From an uncultured Bacilli bacterium (GTDB taxonomy: Bacteria; Bacillota_I; Bacilli_A; RF39; UBA660), in NCBI GenBank assembly GCA_947632735.1, contig CANRQG010000001.1, positions 3,903 through 67,902 of the forward strand: 64,000 nucleotides of DNA, in the 5' to 3' direction. The notes under the pieces are model-generated. The model was not told the DNA's origin. It searched no databases and worked only from the letters and a program-made list of their open reading frames with translations. This document shows, one piece after another, positions 17 to 59,427 of the stretch; the first letter of the stretch is position 1; each line of letters starts with the position of its first letter. The position numbers and the translations under genes are program-made.

Positions 17-2134
17 ATGATAGTAAAAAGAAATGGCAACTTAGAAAAATTTGACCCTGAAAGAATTAAAAAAGCTATAACCGCATCAGCTGAACGAGTA
101 ATGGTCGACTTAACCGATGAAGCAATAGAAGATGTTGTAGAACGCGTAAGAAAATTACTATTGACACAGACAAGTAACCCAACAGTTGAACAAGTACATA
201 GTTGTTGTGAAGCAGCCCTTGAACAAGTTAATCCACTTGCTGCTAAGAGTTATAGAGAATATAGAGACTATAAAAAAGATATAGTTCATATATTAGATAA
301 AGTTTATAAAAAAGCTCAAGTTATTACTTATATAGGTGATAAAGAATGCGCTAATATGGATAGTGCCTTAGTAACGACACAAAGATGTTTAATTTATAAT
401 AGCTTAAATAAAGAATTATATAAAAAATTCTTCTTAACTCCTGCTGAAATAGAGGCTTGTAAAGATGGTTATATTTATATTCACGATATGAGTGCTAGAC
501 GTGATACAATGAACTGCTGTTTATTTGATATGGCTAATGTTTTAAAAGATGGTTTTGAAATGAGTAATATTTGGTATACGGAACCTAAAACATTGGGAAC
601 GGCTTTTAATGTTATGGGCGATGTTATCAACAATACAACAGCTATGCAATATGGTGGTTTTACTGTACCAGAAGTAGATTCAGTATTAAAAAAATATGCT
701 AAAATGAGTTATGATAAATATTATGAAGAATATTTAGATATAAAGGGAAAAAAATATACTGAAGAAGCAAAAGAATATGCCTTAAAGAAAGTACAAAGAG
801 AATGTGAACAAGGCTACCAAGGTATTGAATATAAACTTAATACTGTAAGTTCTAGTAGAGGAGATTATCCATTTGTTACTTTTACCTTTGGTGTTGATAA
901 AGACCCTTTTGCTGTAATGATTAGTCAAACTATTTTAAATGTCCATAAAGAAGGGCAGGGTAAAAAAGGTTTTAAAAGACCAACATTATTCCCTAAACTA
1001 GTATTCTTATATGATAAAAAACTTCACGGAGAGGGTGGCAAGTTAAGAGATAGCTTCTTATGTGCAATTGAATGTAGTAAGAAAACAATGTATCCAGATT
1101 ATTTATCTTTAACAGGAGAAGGTTATGTTCCAGAAATGTATAAAAAATATGGAAGAATTGTAAGCCCAATGGGATGTCGTGCTTTCCTTTCACCTTGGTA
1201 TGAAAGAGGCGGAATGGAACCAGCCGATAAAGATGATAAGCCTGTTTTTATAGGAAGATTTAATATAGGAGCAATTTCTCTTCATTTACCAATGATACTT
1301 GCTAAAGCCCGTGAAGAGCAAAAAGATTTTTATGAAGTATTAGATTATTATCTAGAAATGATTAGAAAAATCCATATCCGTACTTACCGTTATTTAGCCA
1401 AGAGAAAAGCTTCTACTAATCCACTTTCTTATTGTCAGGGAGGCTTTTATGGTGGACATTTAAAACCAGAAGAAGCAATTGAACCAGTATTAAAATCATC
1501 TACAGCTTCCTTTGGAATTACAGCTTTAAATGAGCTTCAAGTTCTATATAATGGTAAGAGTATTGTTGAAGATGGTGCTTTTGCTTTAGAAGTTTTAAAA
1601 TATATTAATGATAAAACGGCTGAGTTTAAGAAAGAAGATAATATTTTATATGCCATTTACGGAACACCAGCTGAAAATCTATGTGGCTTACAAATAAAGC
1701 AATTTAGAAAGAAATATGGTGTTGTTGAAGGAGTTAGCTCCAGAGAATATGTTTCAAACAGTTTTCATTGTGGTGTTTGGGAAGATATTACAGGAATTGA
1801 AAAGCAAGACTTAGAAGAAAGATTTTGGGAACTTTGTAAAGGCGGCCGGATTCAGTATGTTAGATATAATTTAAACTATAATACTAAAGCCCTACTTACT
1901 TATGTCGAAAGAGCTATGGAAAAAGGTTTCTATGAGGGTGTTAACTTATCACTTGCTTACTGTAATCATTGTGGGCACGAAGAGCTAGATATGGATGTAT
2001 GTCCAAAATGTGGTAGTAGTGATTTAACAAAAATAGATAGAATGAATGGTTATTTATCTTATTCAAGAGTTCACGGCGATACTATGCTAAGTAATGCTAA
2101 GATGGTCGAAATATCCGAAAGGAAGTCTATGTAA
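17..2134 (+). CDS. nrdD: Anaerobic (class III) ribonucleoside-triphosphate reductase NrdD, copy 1. N-terminal ATP-cone, C-terminal Zn ribbon CxxC..CxxC followed by a glycyl-radical-like 'RMNGYL' motif.
   Basis: 705 aa ORF. ATP-cone-like N-terminus (VKRNGNLEKFDPERIKKAI), C-terminal CNHCG...CPKCG ribbon then RMNGYLS, matching the E. coli NrdD RRVCGYLG architecture. An activase gene lies immediately downstream. Confidence 0.85.
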   Translation: MIVKRNGNLEKFDPERIKKAITASAERVMVDLTDEAIEDVVERVRKLLLTQTSNPTVEQVHSCCEAALEQVNPLAAKSYREYRDYKKDIVHILDKVYKKAQVITYIGDKECANMDSALVTTQRCLIYNSLNKELYKKFFLTPAEIEACKDGYIYIHDMSARRDTMNCCLFDMANVLKDGFEMSNIWYTEPKTLGTAFNVMGDVINNTTAMQYGGFTVPEVDSVLKKYAKMSYDKYYEEYLDIKGKKYTEEAKEYALKKVQRECEQGYQGIEYKLNTVSSSRGDYPFVTFTFGVDKDPFAVMISQTILNVHKEGQGKKGFKRPTLFPKLVFLYDKKLHGEGGKLRDSFLCAIECSKKTMYPDYLSLTGEGYVPEMYKKYGRIVSPMGCRAFLSPWYERGGMEPADKDDKPVFIGRFNIGAISLHLPMILAKAREEQKDFYEVLDYYLEMIRKIHIRTYRYLAKRKASTNPLSYCQGGFYGGHLKPEEAIEPVLKSSTASFGITALNELQVLYNGKSIVEDGAFALEVLKYINDKTAEFKKEDNILYAIYGTPAENLCGLQIKQFRKKYGVVEGVSSREYVSNSFHCGVWEDITGIEKQDLEERFWELCKGGRIQYVRYNLNYNTKALLTYVERAMEKGFYEGVNLSLAYCNHCGHEELDMDVCPKCGSSDLTKIDRMNGYLSYSRVHGDTMLSNAKMVEISERKSM

Positions 2135-2135
2135 A

Positions 2136-2681
2136 ATGCGTTATCATAATATTACCAAAGCTGATATGCTTAATGGTGAGGGTCTAAGAGTAGTCCTTTG
2201 GTGTAGTGGTTGCTCTCACCATTGTATGGCTTGTCAAAATGCTATTACTTGGGATAAAAATGATGGCTTAAGCTTTGATGAAGAAGCTAAAAAAGAAATA
2301 TTTAGTGAATTAGAAAAAGAATGGTGTAGTGGTCTTACATTATCAGGTGGTGACCCTCTCTTCCTAGAAAGTAGAGAAGAAATAGCTAAATTAGTTAAAG
2401 AAGTAAGAGCCAAGTTTCCTAATAAAAGTATTTGGTGCTATACAGGCTATACTTGGGAAGAATTATTAAAACAAGCTAAAACTGATAAAAATTTACAAAC
2501 AATTTTAGATAACATCGATGTTTTACTTGATGGAGAATTTGTACTAAAATTAGCTTTAGAAAAACTACATTATGTAGGAAGTACTAATCAGTGTATAATT
2601 GATGTTAAGAAAAGTTTAAAAGAGAAAAAGAAGATTTTATATATAGATAATAGTAAAATTATAAAAGGAGAAGAAGTATGA
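2136..2681 (+). CDS. nrdG: Anaerobic RNR activating protein NrdG (radical SAM), copy 1
   Basis: N-terminus MRYHNITKADMLNGEGLRVVLWCSGCSHHCMACQN is the typical NrdG Cx3Cx2C-type cluster motif. Overlaps the nrdD end. Start chosen at the ATG in frame with the listed ORF (2094), with RBS gaaaggaag upstream. Confidence 0.85.
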   Translation: MRYHNITKADMLNGEGLRVVLWCSGCSHHCMACQNAITWDKNDGLSFDEEAKKEIFSELEKEWCSGLTLSGGDPLFLESREEIAKLVKEVRAKFPNKSIWCYTGYTWEELLKQAKTDKNLQTILDNIDVLLDGEFVLKLALEKLHYVGSTNQCIIDVKKSLKEKKKILYIDNSKIIKGEEV

Positions 2682-3133
2682 GACAAAGAGGTTTTGAAGT
2701 AGTAAAAGGTTATGAAGATAAGAAAATAAATTTACCAGTAAGAAAAACAGCCCATTCAGCAGGCTATGACGTAGAAGCAGCAGAAGATATAGTAATTCCA
2801 AAATATTATCCCGGCATAAAGCCAACCTTAATACCAACAGGTTTAAAAGCTTACTGTTTAGATGATGAATGCTACTTATTGTTAAATAGAAGTAGTGGAC
2901 CTAAAAAAGGCTTTGTTTTAGCTAATAGTGTTGGTTTAATTGATTCAGATTATTATGAAAATGAAGATAATGATGGCCACTTTTATTTCGCCTATTTTAA
3001 TTGTAGCGATAAAGACATTGAAGTTAAAAAAGGTGACGTCATAGGTCAAGTCGTTTTTACAAAATTTTTAGTAGTAGATGAAGACAATGCTACTGGTATT
3101 AGAACTGGTGGTTTTGGTTCAACTGATAAGTAA
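2678..3133 (+). CDS. dut: dUTP diphosphatase (trimeric dUTPase family)
   Basis: 151 aa with dUTPase motifs: ...RSSG..., GLIDSDY, C-terminal RTGGFGSTD. Coupled 4-nt overlap with nrdG. Confidence 0.7.
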   Translation: MRQRGFEVVKGYEDKKINLPVRKTAHSAGYDVEAAEDIVIPKYYPGIKPTLIPTGLKAYCLDDECYLLLNRSSGPKKGFVLANSVGLIDSDYYENEDNDGHFYFAYFNCSDKDIEVKKGDVIGQVVFTKFLVVDEDNATGIRTGGFGSTDK

Positions 3134-3458
3134 TTTTTAACAAAAAAGTAAAAAGTATTTTTTCACTTTTTTAAATTTTTAATAAAAATATTTTTTATAA
3201 AGCATTGAAAAATAAGGAAAATAATAAAAATAAAAAACCAAAAAATCAAAAAAATCAAAAATTTGATTTTTTATTTTTTTAATTTTTGTATAAAAATGTA
3301 AATTGTCGTAAATCGAACAAAAAAATTTTTTAGGCCTTTTCTTTATATATCAACAGATAGAAAAATTTTCTAAAAAAAAGCCAAAAAAACAGTATTGATT
3401 TTTAGAAAAATACCTCTTAAAATTGAATTAGAAAGTGAGAGGAAAGAGGTAAAAAATT

Positions 3459-5777
3459 ATGGCAGAAGTAAGCGAAATTTTAGAAAATTTAGTAGTAATA
3501 AAAAGAAGTGGTAAAAAAGTTGATTTTGATGGTAAAAAAATTGCTTTAGCCATAAAAAAGGGTTTTGATAGTGTTGAAATAGATACTGATGAAGAAGAAA
3601 AAGAAAAAAAATACTCTAGTAAAGACGTTCAAAAAATATATCAAGCTGTTTTAAAAAGACTAGAAAAAGAAGCTAAAAACAAAGATAAAATTCAAATTGA
3701 AGAAATTCAAGATTTAATAGAAGAAGAATTATCTAGTAAAGGTTATGAAGATGTTCATAAAAGCTTCTCAGAATATCGAGATAGAAGAAATGCTTCTCGT
3801 CAATCATTCTTTGCTGATAAGAAAACTCATAAGTTTTTAAAATCACTTGAAAATTTAGGCTTAAAATCAGCTAATGAAGAAGATGCTAAAAGAGAAAATG
3901 CTAACATTGATGGTAACTCACCAATGGGAACTATGCTTCAATATGGAGCAACCGTTTCTAAAGAATTTGCTAAAGCCTATTTAATGAAACCTGAATTTGC
4001 AAAAATGCACGATGAAGGTACTATTCATATTCACGATATGGACTTTCTAGCAATGGGAACAACAACCTGTTGTCAAATAGATTTATCAAGATTATTTAAA
4101 AATGGTTTTGATACAGGACACGGCTTTGTTAGACCTCCACAAGATATTAGCACTTATGGTTCATTAGCCGCTATCGTAATTCAAGCTAATCAAAATGACC
4201 AACACGGTGGTCAAGCAATACCAGCTCTTGATTATTACTTAGCACCAGGAGTTCTAAAAACATTTAAAAAACAATTTAAACAGACAATTTATGATTTTCT
4301 AGATTTAGAAGGTTTTCTAGAATATGTTAACTTTGATAGATTTGTAAGAGAAGTAGATAAATTAGAAAGTATTGAATTCCCTATAGAAACACTTACTGAT
4401 TATCAAAAAGCTTCAAGTAGAGTTCAAGAAGTATTTACTAAAGGTTATGAAAAAGCTTTACAAAAAACTGATAGAGCTACACAACAAGCAATGGAAGCCT
4501 TTATCCATAACTTAAATACTATGCATTCTAGAGCTGGAGCTCAAGTACCATTTTCATCAGTTAACTTTGGAACTGATACTTCACCTGAAGGAAGAATGGT
4601 AATTAAAAACTTCTTATTATCAGCAGATAGAGGTTTAGGAAAAGGTGAAACACCAATATTCCCAGTATCAATATTTAAAGTAAAAGAGGGAGTTAATTAC
4701 AATAAAGAAGATAAGAACTATGACTTATTTAGATTAGCTTGTAAAGTTTCAGCAAAGAGGCTTTTCCCTAACTTTTCATTTATTGATGCTCCATTTAATC
4801 TTCAATATTATAAGCCTGGTAATCCTGCAACAGAAATTGCCTATATGGGTTGCCGTACAAGAGTAATTGGTGATGTAACAGCACCTGATAATGAAGTAGT
4901 TGTAGGTCGTGGAAATCTTTCTTGGACAACAATTAATTTACCTCGACTTGGTATCAAATATGGAATTGCTCTTAAAGAAAGAGAAAAAGCTGATATTAAA
5001 GGCTTTTATGAAGAACTTGATAATTTAATGGAGACAGTAAAAGACCAATTACTTGAAAGATTTGAAGTTCAATGCAATAAACGTTGTTACAACTTCCCAT
5101 TCCTATTAGGACAGGGTGTATGGACTAATGGAGAAAAATTAAAACCTACAGATAGATTAAGAAAAGTTTGGAAACACGGTTCACTTTCTATTGGTTTTAT
5201 CGGCTTAGCTGAATGTTTAAAAGCTTTAACTGGTAAACATCACGGTGAAAGTGAAGAAAGCCAAAAATTAGGTTTAGAAATTATTAAATTTATGCGTAAA
5301 AAATGTGATGAATTTGCAGAAAGATACCATTTAAACTTTGCTTGTCTAGCAACCCCAGCTGAGGGCTTATCTGGTAGATTTACTGCTATAGATAAAGCCA
5401 TATATGGAAAGATTAAAGGTGTTACTGATAGAGAATATTATACTAACTCTTTCCACGTACCAGTATATTATCATATAAGTATTCACGATAAGCTATACAG
5501 AGAAGCTCCATATCACGCTCTAACGAATGGTGGACATATTTCTTACATAGAATTAGATGGTGATGCTGCTTCTAATGTTGATGCTTTTGAAAATGTTATT
5601 CATACAATGAAAAATGCTGGTATTGGCTATGGTGCCGTTAACCATCCAGTAGATAGAGACCCAGTATGTGGTTATGTTGGTGTCATAAATGATGTTTGTC
5701 CAGGATGTGGACGTAAGGAATTCGAAGGGGTTCCACTTGAAAAAGTAACTTCTATTGATAATAAATGTTGTGAATAG
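3459..5777 (+). CDS. nrdD: Anaerobic ribonucleotide reductase NrdD, copy 2. ATP-cone, catalytic core and Zn ribbon are present, but the C-terminal glycyl-radical domain is absent from this ORF.
   Basis: 772 aa. ATP-cone (VVIKRSGKKVDFDGKKIALAIKKGF) with a Glu/Lys-rich insertion. C-terminus ...DPVCGYVGVINDVCPGCGRKEFEG... ends at a TAG stop without an RVxGY glycyl motif. Confidence 0.8.
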   Translation: MAEVSEILENLVVIKRSGKKVDFDGKKIALAIKKGFDSVEIDTDEEEKEKKYSSKDVQKIYQAVLKRLEKEAKNKDKIQIEEIQDLIEEELSSKGYEDVHKSFSEYRDRRNASRQSFFADKKTHKFLKSLENLGLKSANEEDAKRENANIDGNSPMGTMLQYGATVSKEFAKAYLMKPEFAKMHDEGTIHIHDMDFLAMGTTTCCQIDLSRLFKNGFDTGHGFVRPPQDISTYGSLAAIVIQANQNDQHGGQAIPALDYYLAPGVLKTFKKQFKQTIYDFLDLEGFLEYVNFDRFVREVDKLESIEFPIETLTDYQKASSRVQEVFTKGYEKALQKTDRATQQAMEAFIHNLNTMHSRAGAQVPFSSVNFGTDTSPEGRMVIKNFLLSADRGLGKGETPIFPVSIFKVKEGVNYNKEDKNYDLFRLACKVSAKRLFPNFSFIDAPFNLQYYKPGNPATEIAYMGCRTRVIGDVTAPDNEVVVGRGNLSWTTINLPRLGIKYGIALKEREKADIKGFYEELDNLMETVKDQLLERFEVQCNKRCYNFPFLLGQGVWTNGEKLKPTDRLRKVWKHGSLSIGFIGLAECLKALTGKHHGESEESQKLGLEIIKFMRKKCDEFAERYHLNFACLATPAEGLSGRFTAIDKAIYGKIKGVTDREYYTNSFHVPVYYHISIHDKLYREAPYHALTNGGHISYIELDGDAASNVDAFENVIHTMKNAGIGYGAVNHPVDRDPVCGYVGVINDVCPGCGRKEFEGVPLEKVTSIDNKCCE

Positions 5778-5816
5778 TTAATTATAAATAAAAAAAGATT
5801 TAAGGAGGAAATATTT

Positions 5817-5990
5817 ATGGAAAAAATAATTGGAGAAGGACAAGGTTTTGAAAGAATTAGAAGAGTTACAGGTTATTTAGCAGGAGATGTTTCAAGATTC
5901 AATAATGGTAAAAGAGCTGAAGAAAGAGACCGTGTAAAACATAGCGGCTTAAATGAATTAAAAAAAGAAGACAAAAGCTGTGAAAATTAG
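5817..5990 (+). CDS. Stand-alone NrdD-type glycyl-radical domain ORF (57 aa), GrcA-like 'spare part' or split C-terminus of NrdD copy 2
   Basis: Not in the ORF track (under 60 aa). Translation MEKIIGEGQGFERIRRVTGYLAGDVSRFNNGKRAEERDRVKHSGLNELKKEDKSCEN contains RRVTGYL...RFNNGKR...RVKH, near-identical in pattern to the E. coli NrdD C-terminus (RRVCGYLGSPDARPFNAGKQEEVKRRVKH). It has its own RBS (taaggagg at 5801-5808) and overlaps the nrdG2 start by 11 nt. Confidence 0.6.
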   Translation: MEKIIGEGQGFERIRRVTGYLAGDVSRFNNGKRAEERDRVKHSGLNELKKEDKSCEN

Positions 5991-6531
5991 ATTAGCCGCT
6001 CAGTTGCAACCAGACTCAATTGTTGATGGCGAAGGCATAAGGACAGTTGTTTGGACCCAGGGTTGTCCACATAACTGTCCGGGTTGCCATAATCCAGGAA
6101 CACACGACTTCAATGGTGGTGCTTTAGTAGATGTAGAAGATATAATTGCTGAACTTAAAACCATTCAAAATCAAGATGGAATAACTTTATCTGGAGGAGA
6201 CCCAGTATGTCAAAGTGAAGCTTGTTCTGTAATTGCTAAAGCTGCTCATAATATGGGGTTAAACGTTTGGTGCTATACAGGCTACACCTATGAAAAGATG
6301 CTTCAAAATCCCGCACATCGTCAATTACTTGATAATATTGACGTCTTAGTGGATGGAAAGTTTATCTTAGCCGAGAAAAGCTATGATTTATACTTTAAAG
6401 GCTCTAGAAATCAAAGAATTATCGATGTTAAGAAAAGCTTAGAAGAAAATAAAGTAGTCTTAGTTGAAAAATATAAAGAAGAAAAAGATAACTCTAATCA
6501 TTATGAAAAACCAAGTTATTTATTCGTATAG
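5980..6531 (+). CDS. nrdG: Anaerobic RNR activating protein NrdG, copy 2
   Basis: GTG start. VDGEGIRTVVWTQGCPHNCPGCHNP radical-SAM cluster motif. About 45% identical pattern to copy 1. Confidence 0.8.
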   Translation: MKIRLAAQLQPDSIVDGEGIRTVVWTQGCPHNCPGCHNPGTHDFNGGALVDVEDIIAELKTIQNQDGITLSGGDPVCQSEACSVIAKAAHNMGLNVWCYTGYTYEKMLQNPAHRQLLDNIDVLVDGKFILAEKSYDLYFKGSRNQRIIDVKKSLEENKVVLVEKYKEEKDNSNHYEKPSYLFV

Positions 6532-6888: not shown

Positions 6889-6920
6889 AAAGCAGTTCAA
6901 ACGAATCTGCTTTTTTTTAC
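6889..6920. terminator. Bidirectional terminator between convergent genes
   Basis: AAAGCAG-ttcaaacgaat-CTGCTTTTTTTT; A/T runs on both sides. Confidence 0.5.
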
Positions 6921-9025
6921 TCTGAAATAACGAAGTTATAAGTAACCCCATTGCAACTTGTTACCTCGCTGCCAAATGTTATACAGTTACTAGGCGAATT
7001 ATCGTGACATCCTACAATTGAACCAGTACTCATACCAGTTTCCTTTTCCCCAACAATATTTACCTTAACACCTGGATAATTTTCCTCGAAGAACTTTTGA
7101 TAAATAGACTTTGCTTTTTCAAAAGAAGCGCTACCACCTATCTCATTAAGTACATTATTTAATCTTCTATCAATTTTATCGGTCATTTTTACACAAGGCT
7201 TCTCTTCTTCTTTACTACTACCACTACTGCTACTAGAACCACTAGAACTACTACTAGAGCTACCAGAACTACCAGGATTCTTTCCCTTACTAATAGTAAT
7301 CGTAATTGTCGTATTAGCTGATATTTCACTACCAGCACTAATTGATTGACTAATTACCGCATTCTCTTTAACAGAATTACTATACTTGTAAACAAACGAA
7401 TACTTTAAACCTAACTTATCTAATTTTTCCTCTGCTTGACTCTTCGTAAGACCATCTAAAGCTGGTACCTTAACTGCCTCTCCATCCGAAATAGTAACAA
7501 TAACAACATCATCATTCTTAATGACATCGCCTGTCTTATAAGAATAGCTTATTATTTCACCAATTTTAACAGTGCTACTAAATTCGTGCTTCTCTTCATA
7601 TTTTATTTCATACTTATCAGCCCATTCTCTAAACTCCTCATAAGAATTAAACTTCGGCATTTTTAAATTGCCCTTAGAAATAACTATCTTAATCGTCTCA
7701 CCCTGTTCTACTTTATCTCCCTTTTTGTAGTTAGCACTTATAACACTATTAGCTTTAACCTTTTCATCATACTTATCACTAAATTCTAATTTTAATCTAT
7801 TTTCTATTATCCATTCAGTAATCTCACTTACCTTCATCTTCATTAAATCAGGTACTTCAATCTCCTTACCCTTACTAAAAGTAACCTTAACCTTTTCATC
7901 GTCGATTTTAACACTACTTCCCGGCTTTTTATCCTGCTTCATTGCCAAGTTTCTCTTAATTTTCTCTGAAAAATCTCGGTCAAACTCATAATTAAGATGA
8001 TGCTGTTTCATATAAAACATAACTTCAAATTCCGTTTTATTTGTAAAATCAATTAACTTAACTTCTTCATAACCCAATTCTTCTCCATATGAGAATGTTA
8101 TCTTTAACTCTTCATCCCTTTTCAAATTACCAGCTTTACTTTGCTCAATTACCGTATCAACGGCCTTATCTGATTCCACAAATTCTACAGAAACATTTGA
8201 TAAATAATTTTTATTAACAAAATCTATAACCCTTTCAGTATCCCAAGAAACCATATTCGGAATTATAATCTCCTTACTAGGATTTGGTCCTTCACTAACA
8301 ACAACAGTTAATTCCTTTACTTTCTTAAGACTAGTCCCAGCCTCAACATCTTGAGTAATTATTTCATACTCATCAACCATATCACTATACTCATATTCCT
8401 GCTTTAAAGTTATTTTATTTTTTTCTGCCCATTTCACTACCTCGGTCAAATTTTCATTAGAAAAATCCTTCATTCCCGTCTTAACCGTAGCCTCACTACC
8501 ATTAAGACTTGTATAAATGCCTAAAGTAAAATAAAGACCTAATAATAAAGAAGCAAAAAATACTACTACCTTATTTCTACTCTTAAGTCCGATAGGAACA
8601 AAAAACAACGTAAATAGTATTATCAAAAGTAAACTACCTACATTTATAATATCTAACTCATCCTTATTTAAATATAAATGAAGTAAAAAGAAACCAACCC
8701 CTAAAAGTAAAACAAAACACAAGAAAAAGTTTACAAAAATACGACTTCCTTTTTTAGTCTCCATATGTTTATCCTCTTTAACATTATTTACTTCTTCTTT
8801 TATAACTTTATTCTTACCTGAAGACTTTTTTTCCACAAATTCTGTTGATAATTCATTTTCATCAAAAATATCTTTTTCTTTTTCCACCGGTTTATCTAAC
8901 TCTTTTTCCTTAGAAACATCTTCTAAAGCTGCCTTTTTCTTTTTACCACTATTTTTCTTACTTCTATATTCCGTTTGTCTAACCACATCGGTATTTTTCT
9001 TTTTTGCCAACTTTAACACCTCCAT
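6917..9025 (-). CDS. Membrane-anchored PASTA-repeat protein. Lys-rich cytoplasmic N-terminus, one TM, four to five PASTA-like domains, poly-Ser linker and an unknown Cys-containing C-terminal domain. No kinase or transpeptidase domain.
   Basis: Repeated ~65-aa units ending ...G..V..G..I.IxISKG (e.g. VKANSVISANYKKGDKVEQGETIKIVISKGN) typical of PASTA. TM segment FVNFFLCFVLLLGVGFFLLHLYL. Ser/Gly tract SSGSSSSSSSGSSSSSGSS. Confidence 0.5.
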   Translation of the reverse strand: MEVLKLAKKKNTDVVRQTEYRSKKNSGKKKKAALEDVSKEKELDKPVEKEKDIFDENELSTEFVEKKSSGKNKVIKEEVNNVKEDKHMETKKGSRIFVNFFLCFVLLLGVGFFLLHLYLNKDELDIINVGSLLLIILFTLFFVPIGLKSRNKVVVFFASLLLGLYFTLGIYTSLNGSEATVKTGMKDFSNENLTEVVKWAEKNKITLKQEYEYSDMVDEYEIITQDVEAGTSLKKVKELTVVVSEGPNPSKEIIIPNMVSWDTERVIDFVNKNYLSNVSVEFVESDKAVDTVIEQSKAGNLKRDEELKITFSYGEELGYEEVKLIDFTNKTEFEVMFYMKQHHLNYEFDRDFSEKIKRNLAMKQDKKPGSSVKIDDEKVKVTFSKGKEIEVPDLMKMKVSEITEWIIENRLKLEFSDKYDEKVKANSVISANYKKGDKVEQGETIKIVISKGNLKMPKFNSYEEFREWADKYEIKYEEKHEFSSTVKIGEIISYSYKTGDVIKNDDVVIVTISDGEAVKVPALDGLTKSQAEEKLDKLGLKYSFVYKYSNSVKENAVISQSISAGSEISANTTITITISKGKNPGSSGSSSSSSSGSSSSSGSSKEEEKPCVKMTDKIDRRLNNVLNEIGGSASFEKAKSIYQKFFEENYPGVKVNIVGEKETGMSTGSIVGCHDNSPSNCITFGSEVTSCNGVTYNFVISE

Positions 9026-9248
9026 TATTATTTAATTATATAATAAATAAAGAAAAATATAAATAATTACTCTCTGTGCCATTGTAAAAATATGTCTATT
9101 TACTTCGAAAAAAGCTAAGTATTCGAAAAAATTACTCCTGCTAAGCAAAAAATTAACTTTTCTAAAAATAAAACCCAACTTTATTTTACTAATAGTCTAT
9201 CTTCTGTTATAATTAAATAAGAAAAAGAGAGAAAGAGGAATAGAAAAA

Positions 9249-11552
9249 ATGGAAAATATAAAAAAAAATATAAATATTTTAGTTGCGAGCTTTTTACTTT
9301 TTCAGCCTCTGCTAGATTTAGTAACAGGTCTTAATATTCATATTCTTAATTTTCCTATCACTATAGGAATAATATTAAAATTTTTATTTATGCTTAGCTT
9401 AGCCTTAATTTGCTTAATCGTTTATAAAAAGAAAAAATTACTAATACCTTATACAATTATAGGTCTTTACTTTGTCTTTTTCCTTATTGGTAAAATAATC
9501 TATCCCACTAATTTATTTAAAGAAGCTCAAGAATTAATAAAAATCTTTTACTTTCCTATTATCTTGATTACTCTTTATTCTATAAAAGATGAAATTAAAA
9601 TTAGTAAGATGACACTTTTTACTATGCTAATGACTTACTTAGTTTGCATCTTTATACCAACCATCTTCCACGCCGGTTATAAAACTTATGAAATAACTAA
9701 AGCTGGTACTTTAGGCTTTTACAATTCCGCAAATGAAATAAGTGGCATTATTTCTTTACTTACACCTATAATGTTTATTATTCTTTTAAAAAAGAAAAAT
9801 ATCTTTTCTTTATTAGGTTTAATTCTCTATCTAGCTGTTATTTTAATGATGGGAACCAAAACACCACTTTTAGTTCTTATAATAACGATATTCTTCTCCC
9901 TAATTTACTTATGGGTAAAAAGTATTCGTGAAAAGACTTATAAAATAATTGGTATTTCTCTTATTGTCTTAACCATTTTCTCCTTAGCTTTAGTCTTCAT
10001 AGTTCCTAAAAGCAATTTTTATAAAAATATAAAAACTCACTTAGATTATCTAGAATTAGATAATGTCTTTGAAGTCTTTGAAGAAGAAAAATTTGTTGAC
10101 CACTTTATTTTTAGTGAACGCCTTACTTTCTTAGCTAGAAAAAATAAAGTTTATGACAAAGCTCCATTATATCAAAAAATATTTGGAATAGGTGCTTATC
10201 AAAAAAATAAAAAATTAAAAATGATTGAAATGGATTATTTTGATATTTTATATTCTAATGGTTTAATTGGCTTCATAATCTTTTTCAGTATCTTCTTATA
10301 TGTAATTATTAAAGTCTTAAGAAATAGCCTTAAAATCAATTATCAAAGTTATATGCTATACTTAAGCTTTGCCTTTATTATCCTGTTAAGCTTTTTTACA
10401 GGTCATATTATAACTGGACCATCAGTAAGTCTTTTATCCGCTATAATTATTCTTTCCCTAAATAAAAGAAAGAAAAAAGACCTACTATTTGCGGGTGTTA
10501 ATCTAGAAATAGGGGGTATTGAAAAAGCCCAAATAAATTTATTAGACAATATTAATTATAAAAAATATAACGTTACTTTAGTCTTAGAAGAAAAAAAAGG
10601 CAAGCTCTTAAAAGACCTAAATAAAAATGTTACTCTAAGAGAAGTAAAAGTAAGTACTAATAATCATTTTTTAGTAAGAAAAATAGCCAATTATTTACGT
10701 AAATTAATTTTTGAAATCTATAGTTATCAAAATTATGATTTTAGTTGTTGTTACACAACATATAGCTATAGTTCTAACAAGTTAGCAAAAATATCTTCAT
10801 CTAATAATGCCTTATATGTCCATAGTAATTATAAAGATGTCTATGATACTGATGAAGAAGTACAAGAATTTTTTGACTCAAGAAAAGTTGCCGACTTTAA
10901 CCATATTATTTTTGTTTCCAATGAAGCAGCTACTTACTTTTTAAGTCTATATCCAAGTTTAAAAGATAAAGTAAAAGTCTTTAATAATTTTATTAATACT
11001 AAAAAAATAATCGAAGATAGCTTAAAAGAAATAAATCTTTCTCATCCTAAAGATAAAAAATTATTAGTATTTGTAGGTAGACTTGATGACTCATCAAAAA
11101 AATTAGCTCGAGCAATTAACTTAGTTAAACAATTAAATGATATTGAATTATGGATAATAGGCTCTGGTCCTGATGAAAATATGTATCAAGATTTAGTTAA
11201 AAAATTAAACTTAACAGAAAAAATTGCTTTTCTAGGTCCTAAGTCTAATCCTTATCCTTATATGAATGAAGCCGATTACTTACTTTTAACTTCTGATTAT
11301 GAAGGTTTCCCAGTTGTTTACCTAGAGGGTATTACTTTAAAAAAGCCTTTCATTACTACAATTGATGTTAGTGATGAAGAAATAAATATCGGTAAAGATT
11401 ATGCTTATATTATTCCTAAAGATGAAGACAAAATGGTTAAAGAAGTAAAAAAGATTTTAACTAAAAAGAAAAAAATTAAAGAAATTAATCTTGATAAAAT
11501 TCAAAAGCAAAGAATAAAAAAACTAGAGCACATTTTTGATGAGGTGGTTTAA
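9249..11552 (+). CDS. Fusion protein: multi-TM Wzy/O-antigen-ligase-like polymerase domain (N-terminus) plus a family-4 (GT-B) glycosyltransferase domain (C-terminus)
   Basis: About 400 aa of 10+ hydrophobic helices, then NLEIGGIEKA...EGFPVVYLEGI, typical of the GT4 EX7E region. Confidence 0.5.
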   Translation: MENIKKNINILVASFLLFQPLLDLVTGLNIHILNFPITIGIILKFLFMLSLALICLIVYKKKKLLIPYTIIGLYFVFFLIGKIIYPTNLFKEAQELIKIFYFPIILITLYSIKDEIKISKMTLFTMLMTYLVCIFIPTIFHAGYKTYEITKAGTLGFYNSANEISGIISLLTPIMFIILLKKKNIFSLLGLILYLAVILMMGTKTPLLVLIITIFFSLIYLWVKSIREKTYKIIGISLIVLTIFSLALVFIVPKSNFYKNIKTHLDYLELDNVFEVFEEEKFVDHFIFSERLTFLARKNKVYDKAPLYQKIFGIGAYQKNKKLKMIEMDYFDILYSNGLIGFIIFFSIFLYVIIKVLRNSLKINYQSYMLYLSFAFIILLSFFTGHIITGPSVSLLSAIIILSLNKRKKKDLLFAGVNLEIGGIEKAQINLLDNINYKKYNVTLVLEEKKGKLLKDLNKNVTLREVKVSTNNHFLVRKIANYLRKLIFEIYSYQNYDFSCCYTTYSYSSNKLAKISSSNNALYVHSNYKDVYDTDEEVQEFFDSRKVADFNHIIFVSNEAATYFLSLYPSLKDKVKVFNNFINTKKIIEDSLKEINLSHPKDKKLLVFVGRLDDSSKKLARAINLVKQLNDIELWIIGSGPDENMYQDLVKKLNLTEKIAFLGPKSNPYPYMNEADYLLLTSDYEGFPVVYLEGITLKKPFITTIDVSDEEINIGKDYAYIIPKDEDKMVKEVKKILTKKKKIKEINLDKIQKQRIKKLEHIFDEVV

Positions 11553-12469
11553 TGCCTAAGTTTAGTATTATTATTCCTGTATATAATGTTGAAAAATATT
11601 TAAAAAGATGCCTAGAAAGCGTTAGACAACAAACTTTTTCTGATTTTGAAGTAATAATTATAAATGATGGTTCTACTGATAAAAGCCTTTCGGTAGCGAA
11701 AAAATATCCTTATCAAATAATAACTACGGAAAATAAAGGCTTATCAAGTGCCAGAAACTTAGGCATAAAAAAAGCTAAAGGAGATTATCTTCTATTTTTA
11801 GATAGTGATGATTTTTTAGAAAAAGATTTATTAAAAGAATTAAATAATAATCTTTTTGATAGTCCAGATATAGTAAGATTCCAAGTTCAAACAGTTACGG
11901 ATACCAAAGAAAAAGTTAAGTATGAAGAAAAAGAGTTTCAAACAACTTCCGGAACCAAAGCTTTTAGTTTAATAGTTAGTAGCCACTTTGTAGAAAATGC
12001 TTGGTGTTATGCCTATAAAAGAGCTTACTTTTTAAAAGAAAAATTTAAATTTAAAGAAGGTACCCTTCACGAAGACTACGGTTTAATTCCTCTAGTCATA
12101 ATAAAAGCAAACCGTGTAAAATCAATTTCTTACATCGGCTATAATTATTATGAGCGAACCGGAAGTATAATGAATAATAGTGATTACAAACGAACAAAGA
12201 AAAAAGTAGAAGACTTTTATAATCACTATCTTTATCTAGAAAAAGAAATTAATAAGACTAACTTAGATAGTACTATATTTAAAAGTTTTATCGCTAACAG
12301 CTTAATCTTAAAAATTTGTGAGTTAAAAAAAGAAGACTACCAAATCTATAGAAAAAAGCTTGTGAAAGATAAAGTCTATTCTAATATTTTAAAAGATACA
12401 ATTCCAAGAAAAATTAAATATTTCTTTTTAAAGATTAGTCCAAAGATATATTATAAATTATTTAAATAG
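11552..12469 (+). CDS. Family-2 glycosyltransferase (GT-A)
   Basis: FSIIIPVYNVEKYL...IIINDGSTD...LDSDD motifs. Confidence 0.7.
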   Translation: MPKFSIIIPVYNVEKYLKRCLESVRQQTFSDFEVIIINDGSTDKSLSVAKKYPYQIITTENKGLSSARNLGIKKAKGDYLLFLDSDDFLEKDLLKELNNNLFDSPDIVRFQVQTVTDTKEKVKYEEKEFQTTSGTKAFSLIVSSHFVENAWCYAYKRAYFLKEKFKFKEGTLHEDYGLIPLVIIKANRVKSISYIGYNYYERTGSIMNNSDYKRTKKKVEDFYNHYLYLEKEINKTNLDSTIFKSFIANSLILKICELKKEDYQIYRKKLVKDKVYSNILKDTIPRKIKYFFLKISPKIYYKLFK

Positions 12470-12480
12470 CGGGTGTTGGT

Positions 12481-13431
12481 ATGAAGTTAAAAAAAGAAAA
12501 AATCTCATTAGTTATACCGTGTTATAACGAGGAAGAATCTCTTCCTATTCTTTACAAAGAACTTAATAAGTTAGCAAAAGAAATGAACTATGTCAATTTT
12601 GAATTTTTATTTATTGATGATGGTAGTAAAGATAATACTCTAAAAACTATAAAAAATTTTTCCAAGAAAGATAATAGAGTAGAGTTTATTTCTTTTTCTA
12701 GAAACTTTGGCAAAGAAGCTGGGATATATGCTGGACTTGAAAAGTCAACGGGTGATTTTGTTGCCGTAATAGATGCTGATTTGCAAGACCCACCCCAAAT
12801 GCTTAAAGAAATGTATAAAACAATAAAAGAAGAAAACTATGAATGTGTTGCCTTATATACTAAATCTCATAAGGACTACTCATTATTAAGAAAATTCTTT
12901 ACAAAATGTTGGTATATTTTAATTGGAAAAATGTCTTCTACCAAACAAGTTTCTGGGGCTAGAGATTTTCGTTTAATGAAAAGAAAAATGGTAGAAGCTA
13001 TTTTACAAATGCCAGAATATAATCGTTATTCCAAAGGTATCTTTAGCTTTGTCGGTTTTAATACTAAATGGATAAGCTTTGAAACCGGAAAAAGAGCTGC
13101 TGGTAAATCAAAGTTTAGCTTTTTCAAATTATTTAAATATGCTCTAGAAGGAATTTTAGCCTTCTCAACTAAACCTTTAGTTCTTTCCGCTTTAATAGGT
13201 CTATTTTTCTGTTTCATAGCTTTTATTGCTATTATTGTAATTATTTGTAAGACTTTAATTTATGGTGACCCTGTTAGTGGCTGGCCATCACTTGCCTGTA
13301 TAATTATTTTTGTAAGTGGCATCCAACTTTTCTTCTTTGGAATTATGGGTATGTATTTATCTAAAATTTATTTAGAAGTGAAAAAAAGACCTTTATATAT
13401 AATTAATGAAGAAAGTAAAAAAAGAAGGTAA
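12481..13431 (+). CDS. GtrB/DPM1-like polyprenyl-phosphate sugar synthase (GT2 with C-terminal TM pair)
   Basis: ISLVIPCYNEEESL...DDGSKD...DADLQDPP, and two C-terminal TM helices. Confidence 0.7.
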   Translation: MKLKKEKISLVIPCYNEEESLPILYKELNKLAKEMNYVNFEFLFIDDGSKDNTLKTIKNFSKKDNRVEFISFSRNFGKEAGIYAGLEKSTGDFVAVIDADLQDPPQMLKEMYKTIKEENYECVALYTKSHKDYSLLRKFFTKCWYILIGKMSSTKQVSGARDFRLMKRKMVEAILQMPEYNRYSKGIFSFVGFNTKWISFETGKRAAGKSKFSFFKLFKYALEGILAFSTKPLVLSALIGLFFCFIAFIAIIVIICKTLIYGDPVSGWPSLACIIIFVSGIQLFFFGIMGMYLSKIYLEVKKRPLYIINEESKKRR

Positions 13432-13436
13432 TATTT

Positions 13437-14381
13437 ATGCAAAAAAATGATATAAGTATAATTGTTCCAATTTATAATGCTGAAAAAACTATCGAAAGAT
13501 GTTTAAATTCTTTACTATCTCAAACAAAAAAAGAACTAGAATTTATTCTTATAAATGATGGTTCAACTGATGAAACAGAAAAAATAATTAAAAACTTTTC
13601 TGATAAAAGAATAAAATATTTTAAAAATAAAAATCAGGGAATAGGTAAGAGTAGAAATTTTGGCTTAGCACAAGCAACTGGTAAATATATATTATTCGTT
13701 GATAGTGATGATTATATTGCTAAAGATATGTGTGAAAAATTATTTGAAAAATGTGAAAATAATAATCTAGATATTTGTATATGCGATTATTACAAAGAAT
13801 TTGAAGATGGTTCTAAAGAAAAAGTTTTCTTAGGAGACTTTTCTATTTCTTCTTTAAAAGAAAATCCTGATATTATAACTGAGCATTTAAATCCCTGGGC
13901 TAAACTATATAATAGAAAAATGCTAATAGATAATAAAATTAAGTTTGTTGAAAACTTAAAATACGAAGATGCTCCTTTTGTAATTGAAGCTTTTTGTTGT
14001 GCTAAAAGAATAGGCAAAGTAAATGAATTTTTAAGCTATTATCTGGTTCATAATAATAGTGAAACAACAATAAGAGATGAAAGATGCTTTGATATATTAA
14101 AAATAGTTGCTAAAATAAGAAAGTATACTAAAGATAAAACTTATCTAAAAGAAAAAATAGATAAATTAACAGTTAGAATTATTACTAATTATACTATTCA
14201 ACAAAGAATGCAAACTGATAAAAAATTAGCTCGAAAATTTATTGATGAAGCATTTACTTATTTAAAAAAAGAAATTCCTAACTATAAAAATAATAAATAT
14301 TATGAAAATAGAGGCTTCTTACGAAGAAGTATTGAAAAAAACAAAACATTAACACAAATTTATTGTAGTTTATATAGATAA
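13437..14381 (+). CDS. Family-2 glycosyltransferase
   Basis: ISIIVPIYNAEKTI...INDGSTD...VDSDD. Confidence 0.7.
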   Translation: MQKNDISIIVPIYNAEKTIERCLNSLLSQTKKELEFILINDGSTDETEKIIKNFSDKRIKYFKNKNQGIGKSRNFGLAQATGKYILFVDSDDYIAKDMCEKLFEKCENNNLDICICDYYKEFEDGSKEKVFLGDFSISSLKENPDIITEHLNPWAKLYNRKMLIDNKIKFVENLKYEDAPFVIEAFCCAKRIGKVNEFLSYYLVHNNSETTIRDERCFDILKIVAKIRKYTKDKTYLKEKIDKLTVRIITNYTIQQRMQTDKKLARKFIDEAFTYLKKEIPNYKNNKYYENRGFLRRSIEKNKTLTQIYCSLYR

Positions 14382-14425
14382 AATATGATAAAATAAAAGA
14401 CGATGTAGAATTAATGTAGTATGAG

Positions 14426-15466
14426 GTGAATGATGTGTTTTTAGTCTCAATTGATATAGAATATAGATATAACATAATAAATAAAATAAAAAAATCTAAT
14501 AAAAATATTAAAACATCTATTTTTACAATTGATAATATCAATTACTATAATTATAAAAAATATGATTACGTTATTACTCAGTATAATCCAAAATTAATTG
14601 ACTATTTTCTTAAACTTGGTAAAAAGATAGTTATATGTTCTTTTGATGAAGAATTAATAAAAGAAGAATACAGAAATAATTCTAAAATATTTATATGTAA
14701 CACTAAAAAAGAAGTAATCGATTTTGTTTTAACTGAATACACTGCGAATAATTATCAAAATAATAAAGTATATAAATGTCTAAAAGCCTTTATATATCTA
14801 GCAATATTTCTCGTTTTTGCTTTTTTCCTTTATAAAAGACTCTATGTCTGTAAAGGAGCGCCTACTAGTAAAAAAGTCTCAAATGAAATAGATTTAAAAA
14901 AAGAAAATTATGTCTTTTTGGGTGATTCAATAACTGATTATTATAATTTAGATAAATACTATGGTGACCTACCTGTTGTTAATAGCGGAATAAGTGGTAA
15001 CGAATATCACGATTTATTAGATAACTTGGACCAACGAGTTTTCAAATATAACCCAACTAAAGTCTTCATTTTAATAGGTACAAACGATATTGCTTATACA
15101 GATGTTAGTAATGAAGAATTAACCGATAAGATTATCGAAATTTGTGATAAAATTCAAGAAGAAAGGTCTAAAACAGAAATATATGTTGAGTCAATTTATC
15201 CTGTAAATAAAAATATGGATAATAATGGTATGGTTTCTAAAAGAACTAATTCCCGAATAAGAAAAGTAAACAAACTATTAGAAGAAAAAGTTAAAGAAAA
15301 TAATTATAAATATATAGATATGTATGATATCTTAAAAGATTCTGAAGGTAATCTAAACCCAAGATACACTTATGATGGCTTGCATATTTCAGAAGATGGT
15401 TATAAAGAAATAACTAAAGAAATAAAAAAGATAATATATAATGGTAGCGAAGGAAAGGAATGTTAA
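14426..15466 (+). CDS. Membrane-anchored SGNH/GDSL hydrolase-like protein (possible polysaccharide O-acetyl esterase or transferase partner)
   Basis: TM helix, then FLGDSITD (Ser block), GTNDI, DGLHISEDGY (DxxH block). GTG start. Confidence 0.55.
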   Translation: MNDVFLVSIDIEYRYNIINKIKKSNKNIKTSIFTIDNINYYNYKKYDYVITQYNPKLIDYFLKLGKKIVICSFDEELIKEEYRNNSKIFICNTKKEVIDFVLTEYTANNYQNNKVYKCLKAFIYLAIFLVFAFFLYKRLYVCKGAPTSKKVSNEIDLKKENYVFLGDSITDYYNLDKYYGDLPVVNSGISGNEYHDLLDNLDQRVFKYNPTKVFILIGTNDIAYTDVSNEELTDKIIEICDKIQEERSKTEIYVESIYPVNKNMDNNGMVSKRTNSRIRKVNKLLEEKVKENNYKYIDMYDILKDSEGNLNPRYTYDGLHISEDGYKEITKEIKKIIYNGSEGKEC

Positions 15467-15468
15467 CT

Positions 15469-16431
15469 ATGAAAGAAACAGCTATTTTATATATAGTTAT
15501 TCCCTGCTACAATGAAGAAGAAGTTTTACAAGAAACAACAAAACAATTAAGACAAAAACTTAAGTCCTTAATTGATAAAAAAATAATCTCTTCAAAAAGT
15601 AAAGTTATGTATGTCGATGACGGCTCAAAAGATAATACTTGGAATATTATAAAAACAATTGCTAGAGAAGAAAAAAATTTTACCGGTATCAGCTTATCTA
15701 AAAATAAAGGTCAACAAAATGCTTTACTAGCAGGCCTAATGACAGCAAGAACATATGCTGATGTCGTTATAAGTATGGATGCTGATTTGCAAGATGATAT
15801 TAATACTATCGATGAAATGTTAGAAAAATATAAAGCTGGCAATGACATCGTTTATGCCGTAAGAAATAAAAGAACAAAAGATAGTTTCTTTAAAAGAACT
15901 AGTGCCCAATTTTTCTATAAGTTTATGAATTTTTTAGGTGCTGAATGCATTTATAATCACGCTGATTATCGACTAACTTCTAAAAGAGTCTTAGATGAGT
16001 TATCAAAATTTAAAGAAACTAATCTATTTCTAAGAGGCATATTTCCCTCAATTGGTTTTAAAACCGCTATTGTCTATTATGAAAGAAAAAAAAGATATGC
16101 CGGTAAATCTAAGTATTCTTTAAAGAAAATGTTTAATTTTGCTTGGGAGGGAATAACTTCCTTTAGTATCAAGCCACTAAGATTTATTTGTGTCTTAGGC
16201 TTTCTAATTTTATTTACAAGTCTAGGCATAATAATTTATTCCATTATTAGAAAAATAACTGGTAATACAGTTGATGGCTGGACTTTTTTATCTATATCTA
16301 TCTGGTTTATCGGAAGCTTACAGATGATAAGTATTGGTATTATAGGTGAATATATCGGTAAAATATATAGCGAGACCAAACAAAGACCACGATACATCAT
16401 ATTAGAAAATTTAGAGGATAAAGAAAATTAG
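15469..16431 (+). CDS. GtrB/DPM1-like polyprenyl-phosphate sugar synthase (second paralog)
   Basis: LYIVIPCYNEEE...DDGSKD...DADLQDD, C-terminal TM pair. Paralog of the 12481 gene. Confidence 0.7.
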   Translation: MKETAILYIVIPCYNEEEVLQETTKQLRQKLKSLIDKKIISSKSKVMYVDDGSKDNTWNIIKTIAREEKNFTGISLSKNKGQQNALLAGLMTARTYADVVISMDADLQDDINTIDEMLEKYKAGNDIVYAVRNKRTKDSFFKRTSAQFFYKFMNFLGAECIYNHADYRLTSKRVLDELSKFKETNLFLRGIFPSIGFKTAIVYYERKKRYAGKSKYSLKKMFNFAWEGITSFSIKPLRFICVLGFLILFTSLGIIIYSIIRKITGNTVDGWTFLSISIWFIGSLQMISIGIIGEYIGKIYSETKQRPRYIILENLEDKEN

Positions 16432-16493
16432 TAGCTAAACTATGGAAAAATATTAGAAAATTAGATATAATTAGTAAAGAAAGTAGGTTAACT

Positions 16494-17237
16494 ATGGAAA
16501 AAAATATAGCAATTAAAGTAACAAATGTTTCTAAAACATTTAAGCTTTACTATGATAAAGCTCATACCTTAAAAGAAAAAATCCTTTTTTTCTCCAAAAA
16601 AAATAAAAGTAAAAATGATATTTTAGAAGTCTTAAAAAATATAAATTTAACAATAGAAAAAGGTGAAAGTGTTGCCTTAATAGGAACAAATGGTAGTGGC
16701 AAATCAACACTTTTAAAATTAATGACAAAAATTATCTATCCAAACAAAGGTAAAATTACAACTAATGGTAAATTAACTTCTTTGCTTGAACTTGGAGCTG
16801 GCTTTCACGACGACTTTACAGGAAGAGAAAATATCTATTTTAATGCTTCGATTTTCGGTTTAACCAAAGAAGAAATAGATGCTAAAATCGATGAAATAAT
16901 TAGTTTTTCAGAATTAGGAGAGTTCATTGATAATCCTGTTAGAACTTACTCATCAGGAATGTATATGCGACTTGCTTTTTCTGTTGCGATTAATGTTCAA
17001 GCCGAAATACTTCTTATCGATGAAATATTAGCAGTTGGTGACCAGCACTTCCAAGATAAATGCTTTAATAAATTAAAAGAATTAAAAGCATCAGGCAAAA
17101 CTATCGTAATAGTAACGCATAATATGAATCAAGTTAAAATGTTTTGTGATAGGGCAGTTTGGCTATATAAAGGTGAAATCAGAAAAGATGGCAATGTAGA
17201 AGATGTTTTGAACGAATATTTGAAAGTATGTGGGTGA
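16494..17237 (+). CDS. ABC transporter ATP-binding protein, TagH/Wzt-like polysaccharide or teichoic-acid exporter
   Basis: Walker A GTNGSGKST, signature YSSGMYMRLAF, Walker B LLIDE. Confidence 0.8.
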   Translation: MEKNIAIKVTNVSKTFKLYYDKAHTLKEKILFFSKKNKSKNDILEVLKNINLTIEKGESVALIGTNGSGKSTLLKLMTKIIYPNKGKITTNGKLTSLLELGAGFHDDFTGRENIYFNASIFGLTKEEIDAKIDEIISFSELGEFIDNPVRTYSSGMYMRLAFSVAINVQAEILLIDEILAVGDQHFQDKCFNKLKELKASGKTIVIVTHNMNQVKMFCDRAVWLYKGEIRKDGNVEDVLNEYLKVCG

Positions 17238-17241
17238 TTAG

Positions 17242-18015: not shown

Positions 18016-18045
18016 AAAGCAAACAAAGAGATAGCGAGGTAATTT

Positions 18046-19879: not shown

Positions 19880-19900
19880 TTTAAAGACGGGTGATATTAT

Positions 19901-21274: not shown

Positions 21275-21289
21275 TACTTAAAGTAAGTG

Positions 21290-21412
21290 TGGTTAAAAGT
21301 ATTTTTACAAAATCCTAAAGAATATGTTATTTCTTATTTATATACTACAATTGGTTATTGGGATATGAATAAATCTGCTTTTTTCGTCTACACTCAAGGC
21401 CAGGTCTAGAAA
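21290..21412 (+). pseudogene. Remnant of a paralog of the downstream GT-C-like membrane protein gene
   Basis: Translates to ...NPKEYVISYLYTTIGYWDMNKSAFFVYTQGQV*. This resembles residues ...HPSIAVEAYLISTLGYWYPGVSYNSVCFGIVED of the 21459 ORF. Confidence 0.35.
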
Positions 21413-21458
21413 AAAGAGATAAAGGCTATAAGTAAGATAATAATTAATGGGGGATGTT

Positions 21459-23234: not shown

Positions 23235-23237
23235 AAG

Positions 23238-44158: not shown

Positions 44159-44273
44159 ATTTATGCTTTTTAAAATTAATATCAAAATAACTAGACACCA
44201 ACTTTACAGTAAATAGTTTTACATATCAAGATAATTCTGCTATAATAACTTACTAGTTAGGAGTTAGTCTGTT

Positions 44274-45071: not shown

Positions 45072-45124
45072 TTTTTAGTATAAATTACTTTTTTTATTCC
45101 ATTATAATAATGGGAGGCAAAAGA

Positions 45125-45772: not shown

Positions 45773-45852
45773 AAAATTATTAAAAATATGGAAAAGTAAC
45801 TTTTATTTTCCATATTTTTTTGATATAATTTACTAGAATAGAGGGTGATTGT

Positions 45853-59365: not shown

Positions 59366-59427
59366 AATAGGTAAAAACATACAACTAATTTTTAACTTTT
59401 CATACAATACTTTAGGTGATAAGAAAA

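Follow-up and report, generated by a model that had tools for sequence, protein, structure and literature searches.

A PASTA-only membrane protein family of RF39-type gut Bacilli and its genetic link to wall-glycopolymer genes

The 64,000-nt stretch of DNA analysed here (the window; positions 3,903 to 67,902 of contig CANRQG010000001.1, assembly GCA_947632735.1) comes from an uncultured Bacilli bacterium of the order RF39. On its minus strand, an open reading frame (ORF) of 702 aa at 6917..9025 encodes a membrane protein with six PASTA repeats and no catalytic domain. The protein represents a complete, conserved, lineage-specific, non-catalytic family of RF39-type gut Bacilli, uncharacterised but already catalogued, and its gene is tied to wall-glycopolymer genes. 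To our knowledge, work on PASTA domains has been concerned almost exclusively with their role as sensors in Ser/Thr kinases or as additions to penicillin-binding proteins (PBPs). A literature search for characterised PASTA proteins without a catalytic domain, this family included, found none. We see about an even chance that the protein is a non-signalling, wall-binding scaffold or adaptor coupled to wall-glycopolymer assembly.

Architecture of the PASTA-only protein

The initial annotation of this gene described a PASTA-repeat membrane protein without a kinase or PBP domain, and profile searches agreed. The Pfam PASTA profile (PF03793) matched six stretches of the protein with an E value of 1.2e-44 and a score of 150.5 bits against a cutoff of 23.2, and there was no other credible Pfam match. 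The NCBIfam model PknB_PASTA_kin (NF033483) was matched only over profile positions 376-500, its ectodomain, scoring 168.7 against a cutoff of 450. Neither Pfam nor NCBIfam found a kinase domain or a transpeptidase or PBP-dimer domain, the PBP domains failing to match even at E values up to 10; an N-terminal Hanks-type kinase domain is absent, Pkinase being unmatched in Pfam. A full-length AlphaFold2 model built from a 77-sequence alignment had a mean predicted local distance difference test score (pLDDT) of 80.8. It contained six PASTA folds (pLDDT 85-96), each an alpha-helix packed on a small three- or four-stranded beta-sheet and tandemly repeated, and three transmembrane (TM) helices (pLDDT 75-91). 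N-terminal residues 1-91 and linker residues 587-608 were disordered in the model, and the C-terminal domain was folded.

All segments of the gene lie on the minus strand, and residues are numbered here as in the 702-aa ORF. The cytoplasmic tail (residues 6-92; 8750..9010) is Lys/Glu-rich, with 23 K, 14 E and 25 K+R, and is predicted to be disordered. The tail is unconserved, its length in homologs running from almost nothing to several hundred residues. In place of the single TM helix first described, hydropathy and AlphaFold2 both gave three (residues 93-119, 126-148 and 152-174; 8504..8749). With the basic tail taken to lie inside and the acidic first loop, NKDELD, outside, the inferred topology is N-in/C-out.

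The count of four to five PASTA-like repeats was likewise too low. Repeats 1 (residues 185-247; 8285..8473), 3 (321-386; 7868..8065) and 5 (455-516; 7478..7663) were recognized both by sequence and by AlphaFold2, and repeat 2 (252-317; 8075..8272) combined a weak sequence match with a confidently modelled PASTA fold. Repeat 4 (388-452; 7670..7864) is best matched by the Staphylococcus aureus Stk1 PASTA structures (PDB 3py9 and 3m9g), and repeat 6 (518-581; 7283..7474) gives the strongest Pfam stretch, over all 64 profile positions (1-64). If extended like the ectodomain of PknB, the six repeats might form a rod of roughly 20 nm. They are followed by a low-complexity Ser/Gly linker ending in KEEEK (584-608; 7202..7276), predicted to be disordered. 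The Ser/Gly run proper occupies residues 584-604 (7214-7276), and its DNA consists of imperfect triplet repeats, with periods of 3, 12 and 21, at 7213-7275, much as the initial annotation had it.

The distal domain, or tip (residues 609-702; 6920..7201), is 94 aa long and has Cys residues at positions 611, 673, 681 and 691. It had been described as a novel domain with four Cys; the size and the Cys count hold, and the novelty of the fold probably does not. Across the subfamily only the first and last Cys, Cys611 and Cys691, are invariant, and Cys673 and Cys681 sit in an insertion loop common to the closest homologs. Modelled alone from 54 homologous segments, the tip had a pLDDT of 84.7 and the order beta-alpha-alpha-beta-loop-beta-beta. 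Foldseek searches of the PDB with this domain returned nothing significant, StkP PASTA4 ranking second at an E value of about 1. The tips of 121 members fall into two super-types, T0 and T1, which are mutually homologous (hhalign probability 92%, E 7e-7). Type T1 aligned over its full length with PASTA6 at an E value of 8.8e-5, on a par with the PASTA2-PASTA6 comparison that served as internal control, and the tip of the window protein, a T0, aligned colinearly with PASTA6 at an E value of 0.034. We consider it likely that the tip is no new fold but a seventh, highly diverged PASTA-like repeat. In divergent branches that lack both the Cys residues and the linker, the distal domain directly follows PASTA6. 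An exhaustive profile search of 1.84 billion representatives found the tip in only 80, always at the extreme C-terminus, and every outlier inspected was a member of the same PASTA-only family.

The gene probably starts at TTG 9010 and would then encode 697 aa (6917..9010, stop codon 6917-6919), because a Shine-Dalgarno (SD) sequence precedes this TTG and homologs begin with MAKKK exactly at this codon in the alignment. The opening codons of the long ORF, which extends to ATG 9025, are ATG GAG GTG; they contain the SD sequence GGAGGTG (9016-9022), 6 nt before the TTG. Related loci repeat the same layout of SD, spacer and start, together with a conserved TTATTATATAAT box. The divergent intergenic region (9026..9248, 223 bp) has promoter-like sites for both flanking genes. 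That of the PASTA gene has a -35 at 9063-9058 and a -10, TATAAT, at 9040-9035, within the TTATTATATAAT box conserved across loci, and that of the neighbouring O-antigen-ligase-like gene lies at 9185-9213; these sites are consensus matches only, and their number is not above shuffle expectation. Rfam found no RNA element near the gene.

A conserved family beside wall-glycopolymer genes

A protein search gave 794 matches with E values of 1e-5 or lower. The best 120 of the 794 are all 605-727 aa long, are 46-74% identical to the window protein and have PASTA as their sole Pfam domain; the closest cover 98-99% of the query. Family alignments (A1 and A3) are colinear end to end, with a variable tail, three TM helices, six PASTAs and the distal domain. 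The names carried by members, such as PASTA domain-containing protein [Bacilli bacterium] on one match and beta-lactam-binding protein with PASTA domain in IMG, are automatic annotations only. When a divergent member was used as the query, the edge of the family was sharp: members scored at least 205 bits, the next non-kinase matches 78-101 and PASTA kinases about 65.

A genome scan confirmed 110 loci, of which 80 were kept for study, each with up to 10 kb on either side and less on short contigs. All 80 come from uncultured gut metagenome-assembled genomes (MAGs) labelled Bacilli, Mollicutes, Tenericutes, Mycoplasma sp. CAG:877 or Ca. Faecimonas; the closest genome matches, at 66-67% identity, are rabbit-gut MAGs. 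Ca. Faecimonas corresponds to the GTDB genus CAG-877 in the order RF39 and has a G+C content of 28% and a genome of 1.4 Mb (PMC8035907); the composition of the window agrees with this. No cultured organism was found among the sources of the divergent members.

Conservation is strongly uneven along the protein. Pairwise identity averages 0.57-0.68 across PASTA1-6 and falls to 0.36 in the TM helices, 0.25 in the tip, 0.17 in the linker and 0.14 in the tail, and by sequence comparison the PASTA repeats are under strong purifying selection. One member (P0315) has a lipobox, a lipoprotein signal, in place of the three-TM anchor. The tip follows its own course. Among pairs with 50-80% identity in the PASTA block, only about half have the same tip super-type, and the third-closest relative of the window protein (P0002, 80% in the PASTA block) bears the other type. 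Because tip type often differs between pairs that are close in the PASTA block, the tip behaves as an exchangeable cassette, which suggests recombinational exchange at the linker. Family-wide (alignment A3; 6920-7201 in the window), the super-types are spread nearly independently of PASTA-block phylogeny.

In the window, the PASTA gene is flanked by nrdG and an XRE regulator and, across the divergent intergenic region, by the O-antigen-ligase-like gene. The latter (9249..11552, plus strand) is the divergent neighbour; it encodes a membrane protein (PF13425/Wzy_C) fused to a glycosyltransferase (GT) domain of type GT4/GT1 and opens a teichoic-acid-like, ABC-transporter-dependent glycopolymer cluster (9249-24176). 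After it come four GT2 genes, an SGNH esterase gene and TagH-like and Wzm/TagG-like ABC transporter genes; the cluster also encodes a DXD glycosyltransferase, a TarF-like glycerophosphotransferase, a DUF6020 membrane protein, another GT2 and an acyltransferase. The linkage is widespread. Of the 69 loci whose upstream sequence was long enough, 52 had the ligase-like gene in divergent orientation no more than 1.5 kb away and another 14 had it at some other place in the locus, a total of 66; the genes of the other flank (nrdD, nrdG and XRE) recurred in only 2-4 loci. Fusion of the ligase to GT4 was seen in 43 of 63 scorable related loci. Branches only about 33% identical still adjoin TarI/TarJ/LicD, TagF/TagGH/LicD or BacA genes. 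In one divergent branch (L101, 1468-6851), the PASTA-only gene directly follows a gerAA-gerAC-gerAB germinant-receptor operon on the same strand, which hints at a link to spore germination in that lineage.

The organism makes peptidoglycan, since the window encodes FemAB, a GH25 muramidase and a GH3 NagZ-like enzyme. In a published survey, most RF39 members are predicted to be walled, with few PBPs and autolysins left and with no standard wall teichoic acid (WTA) or lipoteichoic acid (LTA) pathway (PMC10868615); the survey and its supplement contain no prkC or PASTA data.

Several other features of the window were noted. A PD-(D/E)XK transposase-like gene (26508-27359) lies between the glycopolymer cluster and femAB and may mark a cluster-exchange boundary. 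On the nrdG side, 17-6531 holds two tandem pairs of an anaerobic ribonucleotide reductase and its activase: NrdD (17-2134) with a radical-SAM activase (2094-2681), and NrdD (3459-5777) with an activase (5980-6531). A 226-aa protein encoded at 34054-34734 has a phage baseplate Gp10 C-terminal domain (Pfam, 1e-23), and no other phage genes were recognized nearby. SpoIIIAH-like and GerM (Germane) genes at 58859-60627 agree with the published prediction of sporulation for RF39.

A wall-binding scaffold and competing explanations

In the reading that we favour, the variable disordered tail and the three-helix anchor would hold a rod of six kinase-type PASTAs outside the cell, and the flexible Ser/Gly linker would lead to the fast-evolving PASTA-like tip as the surface-exposed end. 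The conserved rod would bind peptidoglycan or its lipid II or muropeptide precursors, by analogy with the PASTAs of PknB, PrkC and StkP; two reports describe PASTA ectodomains that bind muropeptides or lipid II (PMC6428115, PMC5786024). Given a cytoplasmic part that is not conserved and an anchor that can be exchanged, with a lipoprotein signal in some members, the protein would act extracellularly as a scaffold or adaptor and not as a transmembrane signal transducer. Its partner would be the adjacent O-antigen-ligase-like/glycosyltransferase gene, along with the teichoic-acid-like cluster. For example, the protein could position the polymerisation or ligation of a glycopolymer at nascent peptidoglycan, or alternatively it could serve as a membrane-wall tether in a lineage predicted to be without the standard WTA and LTA pathways.

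Several considerations weigh against this scaffold proposal. Some PASTA domains, for example those of PBPs, do not bind muropeptides. The conserved gene order is seen in a single bacterial order, where common descent instead of function could explain part of it. The O-antigen-ligase-like protein may be a polymerase, a ligase or a protein O-glycosyltransferase. Tip type did not co-vary with the fused or unfused state of the ligase (p = 0.42). Finally, the tip cysteines probably form disulfides, the basis for this being only that Cys counts are even (2, 4 or 6) in 117 of 121 sequences.

The similarity of the repeats to those of kinases raises the question of whether the gene is a piece of a kinase system. 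The initial annotation pointed to Ser/Thr-signalling parts without a kinase, naming a PP2C gene at 44274-45071, and proposed that a sensor and its kinase might be split. No Hanks kinase was found anywhere in the 64-kb window by tblastn with PrkC and PknB kinase-domain probes. Related loci do not bear out the picture of signalling parts without a kinase. In two of them (L044 and L047), the PASTA-only gene is accompanied, about 6 kb away, by a complete fmt-x-rlmN-PP2C-PrkC-rsgA-rpe locus, x being an uncharacterised ORF. The PrkC encoded there is 589-603 aa long, with a kinase domain, one TM helix and three PASTAs that are only 28-38% identical to the PASTA-only repeats. In both loci (L044, 2419-4230; L047, 1188-2957) PrkC ends past its third PASTA in a Thr/Ser/Pro-rich low-complexity tail that recalls the PASTA-only linker. 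PrkC homologs of the lineage, named Stk1 family PASTA domain-containing Ser/Thr kinase [Bacilli bacterium], are abundant, 76-100% identical and 580-609 aa long. All bear PASTAs, and all lie within rlmN-PP2C-PrkC-rsgA-rpe (including L081-L097), where the PP2C is 246-248 aa long. Co-occurrence of PrkC with the PASTA-only gene rests on L044 and L047; the PrkC homologs map mostly to raw metagenome contigs, and the single NCBI record among these, JAFVFR01, is outside the 80 MAGs.

The PP2C of the window is evidently a paralog and not an orphaned prpC, because it is only 31% identical to the operon phosphatase, scores 154.9 against an Stp1 cutoff of 230 and has different neighbours: an unannotated 503-aa ORF, a 220-aa lipoprotein-like ORF and a HerA-like ATPase (PADLOC HerA, 1e-109). 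The 503-aa and 220-aa ORFs gave no kinase signal in Pfam at E values up to 10 and no PADLOC match, so that no hidden kinase was detected beside the PP2C. The PP2C group (42647-47799) is directly upstream of sepF and divIVA and could be a defence-type or division-linked module.

These observations leave very little room for the idea that the protein is the detached extracellular sensor of a Hanks kinase that lacks its own PASTAs. The presence of a PP2C without a kinase in the window first made it attractive, and PASTA-less PrkC homologs do exist in Mycoplasma; however, the kinase in L044 and L047 keeps its own TM helix and three PASTAs, the lineage homologs are uniformly PASTA-bearing, and the window PP2C is a paralog set beside other genes. 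Even less probable, with next to no chance of being right, is that the gene is a pseudogene or the 3' remnant of a disrupted pknB or prkC. Its repeats do resemble those of kinases, but it belongs to a full-length conserved family with its own three-TM anchor, and the repeats are under strong purifying selection. The initial annotation had raised this possibility; we reject it because the 223-bp upstream region holds a conserved promoter-like box and an SD sequence, with no kinase remnant, and because several hundred full-length homologs have the same ends. Both the split-sensor and the remnant explanations are essentially excluded.

Two other explanations allow for an intact, functional protein. 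The PASTA-only protein might be a co-receptor or decoy for PrkC, forming a heterodimer with the PrkC ectodomain or competing for lipid II or muropeptides and so tuning Ser/Thr signalling. The repeats are of the kinase type, their best PDB and NCBIfam matches being Stk1 and PknB ectodomains, and PrkC coexists in relatives at a distance of only about 6 kb in L044 and L047. We nevertheless judge this unlikely: the conserved linkage is to glycopolymer genes and not to prkC, the kinase being present in only 2 of the 80 kept loci, which extend 10 kb at most to either side; the repeats are poorly related to the PrkC PASTAs of the same genome; and there is no conserved cytoplasmic part.

Somewhat less improbable, though still on the doubtful side, is a surface-display stalk or glycoprotein. 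The rod would then merely span the wall and anchor the protein in it, the tip would be an adhesin, a variable antigen or a phage receptor, and the Ser-rich linker would be O-glycosylated by the Wzy_C/GT4 neighbour. The hypervariable tip fits this explanation, as do the near independence of its super-types from PASTA-block phylogeny, its confinement to the C-terminus of the PASTA-only family and the abundance of S, N and T in the linker. Protein O-oligosaccharyltransferases are among the members of the Wzy_C family, and in Firmicutes there are GT4 enzymes that glycosylate Ser-rich repeats. On the other hand, the six PASTAs are conserved far beyond the needs of a passive spacer, the GT4 matches are generic, far under their cutoffs, and the S+T fraction of the linker ranges from 0.06 to 0.71, with divergent members lacking both the linker and the Cys residues altogether. 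That range and the linker-free members do not uphold Ser/Thr richness of the linker as a universal glycosylation signal.

Returning to the wall-binding scaffold, a more specific version can be imagined, although it is a long shot. The PASTA-only protein and the O-antigen-ligase-like/GT4 protein would form an RF39-specific two-part machine in which the rod, by recognizing lipid II or nascent peptidoglycan, directs a WaaL/Wzy-type, non-LCP enzyme that attaches a teichoic-acid-like glycopolymer to the wall or polymerises it there, with the cassette-swapped, Cys-bearing tip under diversifying pressure from phages or the host. If this is true, PASTA domains would have a novel function outside signalling, and wall glycopolymers a novel means of attachment in Gram-positive bacteria. 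The broader scaffold proposal, if true, would give PASTA arrays a second role, as structural or targeting wall-binding modules, and would offer a clue to how RF39 bacteria, with reduced genomes, few PBPs and autolysins and no standard teichoic-acid pathway, build their envelope. In sum, a family that spans a major uncultured gut order has a long, strongly conserved PASTA array, no enzymatic or signalling output and a genetic tie to wall-glycopolymer genes, and a tempting misreading of the gene, as a broken kinase or a split sensor, is corrected.

Comparison with known PASTA and wall-binding proteins

The closest relatives in design are the PASTA Ser/Thr kinases (PknB, PrkC, StkP, Stk1 and IreK; NF033483). 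Like them, the PASTA-only protein has an outward linear array of kinase-type PASTAs on a membrane anchor, a predicted N-in/C-out topology, a distinct distal repeat, for which StkP PASTA4 is the best match in structure, and a presumed ability to recognize peptidoglycan or lipid II. Unlike them, it has no kinase domain or any conserved cytoplasmic domain; it has three TM helices, or a lipid anchor, where kinases have one TM helix; it has six PASTAs and one PASTA-like repeat, compared with 3-5 in the kinases; and it carries a low-complexity linker and a hypervariable, Cys-bearing tip. Its gene lies beside glycopolymer genes and not in an rlmN-prpC-prkC operon, and relatives have a true PrkC in addition. 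Class B PBPs with C-terminal PASTAs (PBP2x, PBP2B, SpoVD and S. aureus PBP1) are also membrane-anchored wall proteins with extracellular PASTAs, but the PASTA-only protein has no transpeptidase or dimerisation domain. A functional analogy from general knowledge is offered by the SPOR-domain proteins FtsN, DedD and DamX, which are non-enzymatic and act by localisation or scaffolding. They too combine a short cytoplasmic tail, an anchor, a linker and one or more wall-binding domains with the lack of a catalytic domain; they differ in having the SPOR rather than the PASTA fold and in belonging to a different phylum.

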